A DNA stretch of 40,283 bases from Thermodesulfobacteriota bacterium (GTDB taxonomy: Bacteria > Desulfobacterota_D > UBA1144 > Nemesobacterales > N074bin48): positions 1-40,283 of the forward strand of contig JBFFSH010000020.1 of assembly GCA_041572575.1 (NCBI GenBank), read 5' to 3'. Position numbers: made by a program. This document shows, in pieces, positions 15,001-18,000 of this stretch; the first letter of the stretch is position 1, and every line of letters begins with the position of its first letter.

Positions 15001-18000
15001 AGATCTATGGGGTTCTGTCTTTTTAATCATGCAGCAGTAGGTGCAGGATATTTAAGATCTAAAGGCTTTGAGAGAATCTTGATTATAGACTGGGATGTTC
15101 ACCATGGTAACGGCACTCAACATATATTTGAATCATCTAAAGAGGTACTTTTCTTTTCTACTCATCAGTTTCCGTTTTACCCCGGTACGGGTTCTCTTGA
15201 AGAATTAGGAATAGATGATGGTGCTGGTTATACTGTAAATGTGCCAATTGAAATTGGTATGGGTGATAGTGAATACATTAAAATATTCAACGAACTTTTA
15301 ATACCAATAACTTCGCAATTTAACCCTCAGTTTATTATTGTTTCAGCTGGTTTTGATTCTTTTATTGAAGACCCTTTAGGCGGCATGAATGTCTCAACCG
15401 AGGGGTTTTCAAAACTCACAGAAATAGTTATTAATCTTTCAGAGCAGTGTTGTGAAGGAAACTTATTATTAATATTAGAAGGTGGTTATAATCTACAAGG
15501 TCTTGCAGATTGTACACAAAAGGTATTTGATACTTTAATAAATTATGATGGCAATAGGGATCATAAAATAACAGAACCCACAAAAGCTGATAATACTATA
15601 GATATTGTTAAAAATAATTATTCAGAATTCTGGGATTTTTAATTTTTTTTATTCATTCTTCTAAAATCCCTGCCTTCTAAGTAGAAAAAACTGCACATAT
15701 CAAAGAGTCTAGACGATATTCGCTCCCCTACTCTGTATTCTAGGATTTCTTTACTATCTCTATTTAAATTCACATTTATATCTTTTGTTACAAAGTTTGT
15801 AGTAATAACAGTAATCTTTGTAGAATTGTATCTTTTGGATATAAGCTGATCCAGTACTCCTAGCTCCCATTCGTTAGCCCTTCCCTTACCAAGTTCATCT
15901 ATTACGAGTACGTCCGTGTCTATCAGTGGATTTATAACCTGATTTTCCGGTCTACCCTCTGAATATGCTGATTTTAAGTCGTTTAAAAGATCAAAAAAGT
16001 CTACAAAAAGACACTTTACGCCTTTTTCCAGTGTAAGTTCAGAAATTGCACATATAGCCAAATGTGTTTTACCAAGCCCAGAGGCTCCCATTAGCAGAAA
16101 TCCTTTATGATGAGGATACTGATCAACGAATTGTTTCACATAAATAAGAGCATCCTGATGGGTGTCATGTCTTGGATTAAAAGTGCTAACTTCTGACACT
16201 GAATAATATTTTGATGGTATAGCGGCCAGATTATACAGTTTAACATTTTTATGAAGGTAACCGCACTGCTCACATGGTTTTAAATAGCTATACCCACTAT
16301 CTTTATAATACTGTTTCTTGCCTGTACCGGAGCATTGGTCACATTTAAGGCAGCTACATACCTGTGCAACTGAATACTTACCTTCTGGCTTTAGCTCATA
16401 ACCATTTCCAAAACATTGTTCGCATCCATACTGCTTTTTTTTCTTGGTCTTTGAAGTCCTTGGCATATCAGTTTAAAAATTCTAAGTTAAACCTTTTTTT
16501 TATCAACATATTTCTAAAAGAAGTAATACTTTTATCATAAGCCTCTTGAGTCATGTTATCACGATTCTTAATATTGCTCTTTGCTTTATCAATAATTGTA
16601 TTTTTTTCTAATTGTGAAAGCAAATTAAATATTCTGTTATATAATTCTAATTCTTTTTCCCTTACCAGTGCATATATTTGAGTATGATCATCACATTTTA
16701 AACTCGCTATGTTCTCTTTATAAGAATTTATTGTAGATATGAGATTATCATCATCTAAATGATTGATTCCGGCACCTATTTTAGAAATTATTTTATCAAC
16801 ATAACTATTGGTACTTTTTTCATCATTAGAGATATCAATATGTTTTAGTCCGGAATATATTTCTATTGACTTATCTATGTAGCTTATAATATAACCAAGA
16901 TTTCTTATCTTTGTTTTATTGTTTAGACTGTCGAAGTTTTTAGAATCTGAAAAGGCATTACTAATCCCTTCTATAATAACTTCATACGGTATTTGTCTGT
17001 CCTTCCATCTTTGTATGAGCTCATAATCCGAGTATGAAATCATTATTCCCTTTCCAAGATGGTTTAAAAAGTATTTCTCAATACTCTTTATATAGGAGTC
17101 TTCTTTGAACATTTATTATAGATCAAAGATATTATATATAATTAATTATCGATTAACTCTCTCATATCTGAGATGGTCTGAGCGTAATCATCTGATGCAA
17201 AAATACCCGAGCCCGAAACAAATACATCGGGACCGTAATTTGCAATCTCTTCAATATTATTGAGCTTTATTCCGCCATCAACCTCAATAAGAGGTTTATT
17301 ATCAAGTTTATCAATTATATTTCTTAATTTTTTAATTTTTGGCAACATTGAGGGTATGAACTTTTGTCCGGCAAATCCAGGCTCCACTGTCATAACAAGT
17401 ATGAGGTCTACAAGCTCCAGCACTTCTTCCAATGCTGAAATTGGAGTAGTAGGATTTACAGCTATCCCAGCCATAACTCCCTTATTCTTAATCTTTTGAA
17501 TAGTACTGTGCAGTAGTTTAGTAGCCTCAATTTGAACTGTAACCAGTTTTACATGGGGTGCGCCTGCATCAATGAATACCTCTACGAAATCATCAGGGTT
17601 ATCTATCATAAGATGAATATCCATTGGAGGAGGATCAATTTTTGCAATTGACATAACCTCAGGTATTCCAAGGCTTATATTTGGCACATAATGACCGTCC
17701 ATCACATCAACATGTATCCAGTCAACTCCTGCCTGCTTAACAGCGGTTATTTCTTCACCAAGTCTTACAAGGTCGGCAGCCAATATGGAAGGGGCTATAA
17801 GTTTTTTATTATCTTTGCTCATTTTATATTTTTTGAAATTTAGCTATAAAGAAACCATCCATTTTATCTAACTCATTAAGCGAACTAAAATAACCATTTC
17901 TATCTAAAAGTCTATTTATTTTTTCGTATTTATTACTCACAGTACTGTCAATCCTAAATTTAGTGTTTTGTTTTAAAAATAATTCACATACGTGTTCATT

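Follow-up and report, generated by a model that had tools for sequence, protein, structure and literature searches.

A resident DnaC-type ATPase with a likely DnaD-like partner, proposed to load DnaB in Dadabacteria and found in several other phyla, often alongside DciA

In Escherichia coli, the dnaT gene for a small DNA-binding adaptor lies directly upstream of dnaC, and in Bacillus subtilis DnaD and DnaI work with both DnaA and PriA, as described in PMC5778457, which also poses the question of DnaT or DnaD counterparts in bacteria with PriA alone. According to Brezellec 2016 (PMC5109545), dna[CI] genes are confined to five phyla, and resident dna[CI] and dciA are never co-maintained, for a reason given there as unknown; dnaC and dciA are mutually exclusive in Enterobacterales, and the Aquificae DnaC (3ecc/3ec2) is one of seven domestications. 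In a table of the same paper, 9 of 9 Myxococcales rows combine dciA with one or more PF01695 proteins, and 4 of 4 Acidobacteria rows have one or more such proteins, three of these rows also having dciA; in neither group are these necessarily orthologues of the ATPase described below. The presence of dnaC with dciA in 22 Vibrionaceae was ascribed to prophages (PMC11087808), and dopC-dopE is a published co-domesticated pair (PMC5509034).

For a Dadabacteria locus, we analyzed a window of 40,283 nucleotides, the whole stretch of contig JBFFSH010000020.1 under study. The features of the locus are as follows.

g01082, 15639-16466, minus strand: 275 aa; DnaC/DnaI-type AAA+ protein, proposed DnaB helicase loader
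Eight-cysteine region of g01082, 16263..16424, minus strand: residues 15-68; two CxxC...CxC/CxxC modules
g01083, 16468-17112, minus strand: 214 aa; likely DnaD-like N-terminal domain and helical C-terminal domain, proposed loader adaptor
Likely DnaD-like four-helix domain of g01083, 16846..17103, minus strand: residues 4-89
rpe, 17142-17822, minus strand: PF00834; upstream neighbour throughout the phylum, including the sister family f9, which is without the partner
rsmB, 17824-19164, minus strand: PF01189 and PF01029; leads the series of co-directional genes here
Deacetylase-family gene, 14611-15642, plus strand: PF00850; convergent on g01082 with overlapping stop codons; outside the module

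The four minus-strand genes are arranged head to tail as rsmB-rpe-g01083-g01082, separated by 1, 29 and 1 bp. The positions, sizes and order of both ORFs, with g01083 directly upstream of g01082, were as an earlier note on this DNA had claimed. The note had also described an operon between rpe and the deacetylase gene. The rpe side of this description stands, but the deacetylase gene is not an operon member because it is encoded on the opposite strand; it adjoins the pair in 30 of 30 Dadabacteria loci (L012-L041). The GC content of g01082 and g01083 resembles that of the remainder of the window, and no transposase or phage genes were found near the pair, the neighbours being housekeeping genes. 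A promoter scan returned fewer sites than in shuffled sequence. DnaA with dnaN, DnaB and PriA are all present in this genome, and g01082 is its sole IstB-family gene above cut-off, DnaA excepted.

The reported match of g01082 to PF01695 was re-obtained (E 1.9e-18), as was that to phrog_50 (E 7.4e-43). Among solved chains the closest was 3ecc (E 4e-27), which we take to be the DnaC of Aquifex, followed by E. coli DnaC (E 8e-15), IstB (2e-11) and DnaI (5e-7). The catalytic residues K112, E170, N203, R216, R220 and R237 of E. coli DnaC, a set taken from PMC8213410, align to K133, E191, N224, R249, R253 and R269 of g01082. These six residues are invariant across 70 aligned relatives and are also kept in the Myxococcota-type, delta and Acidobacteriota rows, so that Walker A and B, sensor I, the arginine coupler and finger, and sensor II are intact in the PF01695 domain. 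The single-stranded DNA tetrad of DnaC (K143, F146, S177, Y179) aligns to K165, Y168, N198 and W200, three of the four positions being like for like and that of S177 being N; in the 70 relatives, W200 is invariant and Y168 is conserved in at least 90%. The curated cut-offs were not reached for DnaC (NF005931, 62 bits, cut-off 357) or DnaI (NF006505, 64 bits, cut-off 228).

In the cysteine region, six cysteines are invariant among the 70 relatives and C37 is nearly so. A doubled cysteine module was observed in Dadabacteria (at least 8 cysteines in 30/30) and in Myxococcota-type sequences (at least 7 in 63/68), and a single module in Acidobacteriota (4-5 cysteines in 53/56) and Aquifex-type rows; in the ATPases of f9 the cysteines are eroded. 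We presume that the modules of g01082 bind zinc and the helicase. For two DnaB C-terminal halves with g01082, complex prediction gave a score of 0.39 against 0.06 for the best control, a value in the weak band (scores up to 0.60, holding 18 of 157 solved complexes and both passing mismatches, 2/215) that may mirror likeness only, since like complexes are already solved (6qel, 4m4w). The runs agreed in at least 86% of contacts, with a partner pLDDT of at least 79.

The match of g01083 to phrog_7498 and phrog_16826 was likewise reproduced (E 5.9e-8 and 2.3e-5, residues 4-92), and 38 of the 61 members of its family matched phrog_7498. PF07261 (DnaD/DnaB_2) had no Pfam match in g01083 itself; six of the 61 relatives matched it at E<=0.1 (best E 7e-5). 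The AlphaFold model (mean pLDDT 90) consists of a four-helix N-domain and a helical C-domain. The N-domain aligned with the DnaD chains 2i5u (Z 6.3, rmsd 2.6, 68/77) and 2zc2 (Z 6.0, rmsd 2.8, 65/75), in a tie with unrelated AAA+ lid domains scoring up to Z 7.3; the two DnaD chains had the lowest rmsd among the top structural rows. Foldseek with the whole protein against the PDB gave nothing at E<=0.001, and the weak Foldseek rows, none of which reached that value, included phage DnaD-like models. A profile of the N-domain against solved chains gave no match below E 0.2, DnaD being absent. Because the alignment with DnaD ties with AAA+ lids, the model makes the DnaD-like label of g01083 likely, short of proof. 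Two of 151 cluster representatives (P0235 and P0265) carry the partner domain and the ATPase as one fused protein, whereas no partner domain was found in 160 viral loci searched.

Within Dadabacteria, the ATPase is phylum-wide and nearly always a single match: 114 of the 120 genomes have it at E<=1e-10, where 115 had been reported. The partner is kept with it in 98 of 101 genomes of the order, all three misses also being without the ATPase. Its gene immediately precedes that of the ATPase at 29 of 30 loci, and a contig edge cuts off the remaining one. The synteny of the ATPase was the same in these 30 and in 20 further loci. The reported absence of g01083 from f9 was borne out in 0 of 19 genomes; in this family of approximately 1 Mb genomes, each of the 9 loci fetched has the ATPase immediately behind rpe and no partner gene in between. 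Since f9 retains the ATPase, the partner is not required everywhere. The f9 ATPase is long-branched, and a clade with the other Dadabacteria was not rejected (p-AU 0.28).

DciA was undetectable in the phylum, as claimed: PF05258 was above cut-off in 0 of 120 genomes and in 7 of 14 controls, and down to E 1 it gave 14 scattered matches in 13 genomes, none above cut-off. The worry that a divergent DciA escapes PF05258 was checked with a profile built from 21 DciAs of related phyla (A4), which gave four matches in the 120 genomes (E 0.067-0.33) and none below E 0.59 among the ORFs of this genome. A richer profile (A5), which picks up three DciAs left out when it was built (E 6e-19 to 1e-13), found no DciA and nothing beyond E 0.1 in nine near-closed Dadabacteria genomes. 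The usual dciA site, after recF or before gyrB, held no dciA in this genome, and an unrelated gene follows recF.

The ATPase is one member of a resident DnaC-type family that has a proposed adaptor of its own, occurs in several phyla and often stands alongside DciA. Its cellular members include Myxococcota-type, other delta-type and Acidobacteriota genomes besides Dadabacteria, and approximately 200 clusters outside the Dadabacteria cluster match at E<=1e-30. A motif scan of GTDB genomes gave at least 120 rows; the matches listed were mostly Acidobacteriota and Aminicenantes, with Myxococcales, Nannocystaceae, Bradymonadia, Oligoflexales, Deltaproteobacteria and three Dadabacteria-type rows. 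We then examined 121 genomes of the phylum of G121 (a Myxococcales record; Myxococcota-type by inference) and 81 Acidobacteriota of the phylum of G152 (Pyrinomonadaceae). One strong copy of the ATPase was present in 67 of the 121 (20 candidates scored per genome) and the ATPase in 74 of the 81, as a single match in 73, although some single matches in both samples could be prophage genes. The partner lies upstream of the ATPase in 51 of the 67 Myxococcota-type loci and elsewhere in the genome in 11 of 11 unlinked cases tested; in Acidobacteriota and Aminicenantes it is unlinked yet present in 14 of 15 genomes tested. It was found in 0 of 21 genomes lacking the ATPase, save for one weak match (E 0.002), and its profile had no match in G125, G126, G131, G138, G142 and G158. 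In at least 21 of the 67 Myxococcota-type loci, a lower bound from flanks of 0.9-1.5 kb, gyrB adjoins the pair, which often comes directly behind it.

DciA was above cut-off in 21 of 50 motif-scan genomes tested: 11/29 delta-type, 10/13 Acidobacteriota, 0/6 Aminicenantes-type and 0/2 others. In the Myxococcota-type sample it was detected in 53 of 54 genomes without the ATPase and in 24 of 67 with it, that is, it was missing in 1/54 versus 43/67; profile A5 recovered none in these 43, its best match being a 738-aa frame at E 7e-4. When 110 of the 121 genomes were placed on a DnaB tree, whole clades had DciA only and whole clades had both, while the ATPase alone occurred in at least two multi-genome clades and several singletons (seven changes); losses of DciA in single genomes may reflect incomplete assemblies. 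For this pattern, a Fisher test gives p 3e-14 but ignores kinship and is not relied on, and an independent-pairs test of DciA loss had 1-4 pairs and no power; independent losses are thus too few for a valid association test. The Acidobacteriota sample held both systems in 51 of 81 genomes (49 of 79 without the unpublished G309 and G331), the ATPase only in 23, DciA only in 4 and neither in 3, so that DciA coexists with the ATPase in 51 of 74 ATPase-bearing genomes. No change in the determinant helix of DnaB tracked the type of loader, and the determinant residue (S/G, as given in PMC8216460) varies in all loader classes.

This coexistence runs counter to the strict mutual exclusion of dciA and dna[CI] that has been published: never being kept with dciA holds in Dadabacteria (0/120) and fails for the ATPase family. 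Because dozens of genomes have the pair together with DciA, the peculiarity of Dadabacteria is the loss of DciA and not the gain of the pair. The long coexistence could also mean that the two have different jobs.

Descent of the ATPase was assessed against DnaB in 66 genomes of the Myxococcota-type sample. Of the strongly supported splits, 17 of 20 in the ATPase tree and 19 of 28 in the DnaB tree were common to both, with two strong conflicts and a Mantel rho of 0.52; within this sample, the ATPase has descended vertically. It is a resident gene, given its fixed and non-mobile context in Dadabacteria and this congruence with DnaB in the Myxococcota-type sample.

These results suggest that the pair most likely loads DnaB in Dadabacteria. 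We consider it probable that it is an old, cellular DnaB loader with its adaptor, of the DnaT-DnaC or DnaD-DnaI kind, which renders DciA dispensable and, in the DciA-less Dadabacteria, acts as the only loader. The cysteine modules of g01082 would grip the C-terminal tier of DnaB, its AAA+ domains would oligomerise on single-stranded DNA, where they would open the DnaB ring or assemble it, and g01083 would deliver the complex either to DnaA at oriC or to a fork that PriA has bound. By analogy with the known systems, the module probably served fork restart first; it may have run beside DciA over long spans, most simply as a restart loader, and where DciA is kept the pair would reload DnaB at stalled forks. 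By rendering DciA dispensable, it may have allowed several lineages, Dadabacteria being one, to lose DciA afterwards. As DciA has been lost there, the pair would load DnaB for both initiation and restart, unless a hidden loader exists.

Two other readings of function were weighed. The pair could be limited to fork restart or repair, with oriC served by an over-diverged DciA, another loader or a self-loading DnaB. The stable coexistence with DciA in whole clades and in most of the Acidobacteriota sample is consistent with this, as are the presence of PriA in this genome, the 7 of 14 controls in which PF05258 rings and the self-loading of V. cholerae DnaB in vitro described in PMC8216460. We regard it as unlikely, given that profiles A4 and A5 detect held-out DciAs and found none in the 120 Dadabacteria or the nine near-closed genomes, that the recF/gyrB site of this genome holds no dciA, and that DciA is missing without the ATPase in just one of 54 Myxococcota-type genomes. 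There is a negligible chance that g01082 is left over from a prophage or serves IS21 as a helper ATPase (IstB): IstB_IS21 is its top Pfam family, but it scores 72 bits against a cut-off of 200 for NF038214 (IS21_help_AAA), its neighbours rpe and the deacetylase gene are housekeeping genes with no IstA transposase or phage gene close by, it occurs as one copy at one site throughout the phylum, and its GC content is like that of the rest of the window. Gene context and conservation rule this identity out.

The history of the pair admits further alternatives. The earlier note had read the pair as one more, phylum-wide domestication of phage genes beyond the seven described. In the version weighed here, the ancestor of Dadabacteria took in an initiator-loader pair from a phage, an eighth independent case, and dciA was displaced immediately; the phage-family matches of both proteins, the synteny fixed across the phylum and the lack of DciA agree with it. 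We find this highly improbable. The approximately 200 clusters outside Dadabacteria compare with a best annotated phage match of E 3e-11; a single query against viral contigs gave no close phage source, and an alignment search of them gave a best E of 2e-19, the viral sets (80/131 and 112 stretches) being samples chosen by motif. In a FastTree analysis of 346 rows (133 near-duplicates removed from 479), Dadabacteria other than f9, Myxococcota-type, delta and Acidobacteriota sequences formed one clade (0.989) with 2 of 69 viral rows; these two fell among Acidobacteriota and the other sampled phage loaders fell outside. In IQ-TREE (77 rows, 192 columns, LG+G4 without a mixture model, root assumed, 23 of 74 branches open), the clade of 45 cellular rows that took in Dadabacteria (support 92/88) was free of viral rows, and a constraint joining Dadabacteria to 19 viral rows and one row grouping with those was rejected (p-AU 0.0016). 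The doubled cysteine module and the partner are common to Myxococcota-type genomes, and the partner domain is absent from the viral loci. Neither phage genes as nearest relatives nor absence from related phyla was found, so the proposed origin of the pair is too narrow: a resident, single-copy DnaC-like and DnaD-like pair without detectable DciA remains of the claim, and a phage domestication specific to Dadabacteria does not, as the pair is resident in other phyla and Dadabacteria nest among cellular ATPases. A far older, ultimate phage origin is plausible. Alternatively, a pair with the same function may have been transferred from a Myxococcota-type cell to Dadabacteria and spread among phyla likewise, which we judge somewhat unlikely. 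Dadabacteria group with one row of the Myxococcota sample (G212) and one further row (97/91), the ATPase is patchy in that sample (67/121; four changes on the DnaB tree), and the gene contexts differ, rpe versus gyrB; against this, 192 columns resolve deep branches poorly, and descent is vertical inside the Myxococcota-type sample. Transfer would alter the history of the pair and leave the mechanism unchanged. With weakly supported deep branches and an assumed root, a single cellular origin is unproven, and descent and transfer are not distinguished.

For the pair as an old loader and adaptor, a wider possibility is put forward tentatively: one very old and so far overlooked resident system in Acidobacteriota, Myxococcota- and delta-type bacteria, Dadabacteria and perhaps Aquificae may have served PriA restart first, worked in parallel to DciA during most of its history, and taken over oriC repeatedly once DciA was gone. 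If so, bacteria with two loaders would be widespread and could do without dciA, and phyla in which PriA alone is known would have in g01083 their missing DnaT/DnaD counterpart. The pair would in any case be the likely loader of a phylum without detectable DciA, and g01083 a candidate answer to the question of such counterparts in PriA-only bacteria. A resident DnaC-type family beside DciA in whole clades could be the missing intermediate in the replacement of dciA by dna[CI], and the idea that the two are incompatible becomes directly testable in culturable bacteria that have both. Our literature search, with subscription journals outside its coverage, found no paper on this ATPase family, on loaders of Dadabacteria or on the essentiality of the myxobacterial ATPase gene.

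Among known systems, the Aquificae DnaC resembles g01082 in being resident and in having equal Walker B - W - RYN spacing, and the supplement of PMC5109545 lists no dciA in 8 of 8 rows covered, as in Dadabacteria. Aquifex-type rows branch near the cellular clade and may share an older origin with it (support 81/27); they differ in their single cysteine module and in having no partner in 10 loci, and a single clade with Dadabacteria was weakly rejected (p-AU 0.035). DciA (PF05258) has the same proposed job of DnaB loading but is unrelated to g01082 and ATP-independent, and dopE is lambda P-like and not AAA+, unlike g01082. Phage pairs of an initiator and a DnaC-like loader (phrog_7498/16826 and phrog_50) have the same two-gene order, although the phage profile is matched at its C-terminal part (positions 176-251 of 296) and g01083 at its N-terminus. 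The DnaD/DnaB/DnaI system of B. subtilis shares a DnaD-type domain and an AAA+ loader with the pair, and the N-terminal domain of DnaI binds zinc. Unlike in B. subtilis, there is one accessory gene and not two, g01082 stays far below the DnaI cut-off (64 versus 228 bits), and the likely DnaD-like domain occupies the N-terminal part of g01083, with an unrelated helical domain behind it. The helicase-binding domain of E. coli DnaC is helical and cysteine-free, and this protein is a distant relative of g01082 (E 8e-15). As in E. coli dnaT-dnaC, the adaptor gene stands upstream of the loader gene and the six catalytic residues and the tetrad positions map from one loader to the other, while the partner here is likely DnaD-like rather than DnaT-like.

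Two of 151 cluster representatives, P0235 and P0265, were natural fusions of the ATPase (g01082, the proposed DnaC/DnaI-type helicase loader) to the DnaD-like N-terminal domain of the partner (g01083, the proposed loader adaptor), with E values of 5e-17 and 1e-18. Within Dadabacteria, the partner was missing from loci L499-L507 of the sister family f9, whose genomes are approximately 1 Mb in size. The ATPase of these loci had eroded cysteine modules, with 1-4 Cys left, and DD as Walker B, and a 118-aa gene lay downstream in place of the deacetylase. In one genome of family f6 (G025, L494), rpe and the partner were inverted relative to the ATPase.

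The gene surroundings of the ATPase were examined in other lineages. In seven loci of the Myxococcota sample, the pair was flanked by gyrB at one end and, at the opposite end, by a gene similar to G000:C13:1813-2412 of the studied genome, which we take to resemble recR. In ten Aminicenantes-type loci, the ATPase directly followed a gene that presumably resembles a sigma-70 factor, and DciA was not found in 6/6 Aminicenantes-type genomes with such loci.

gyrB / pair / presumed recR-like gene: L414, L415, L416, L418, L421, L422, L431
presumed sigma-70-like gene / ATPase: L238, L242, L243, L253, L258, L272, L286, L287, L292, L311

In the studied genome, recF was found neither in the dnaA-dnaN locus nor in the gyrB locus, and was split over two contig ends:

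G000:C1:95052-95369, one part of recF
C131:1-940, the other part of recF

The DciA proteins of genomes G125 and G126 (L359, L367) contain the DciA domain twice, in tandem and within a single frame. Both genomes also have the ATPase; the partner was not detectable there by profile search. In three small genomes of the Acidobacteriota sample (G295, G352, and G364; 1.9-2.5 Mb), neither DciA nor the ATPase was found with the queries used.

Acidobacteriota-type copies of the ATPase were also present, without the partner, on viral contigs L131, L137, L145, and L159 (E 1e-31 to 1e-35 against g01082). L159 additionally carried a ParA-like gene and a long ORF upstream. Phages or plasmids have possibly recaptured the Acidobacteriota-type ATPase.
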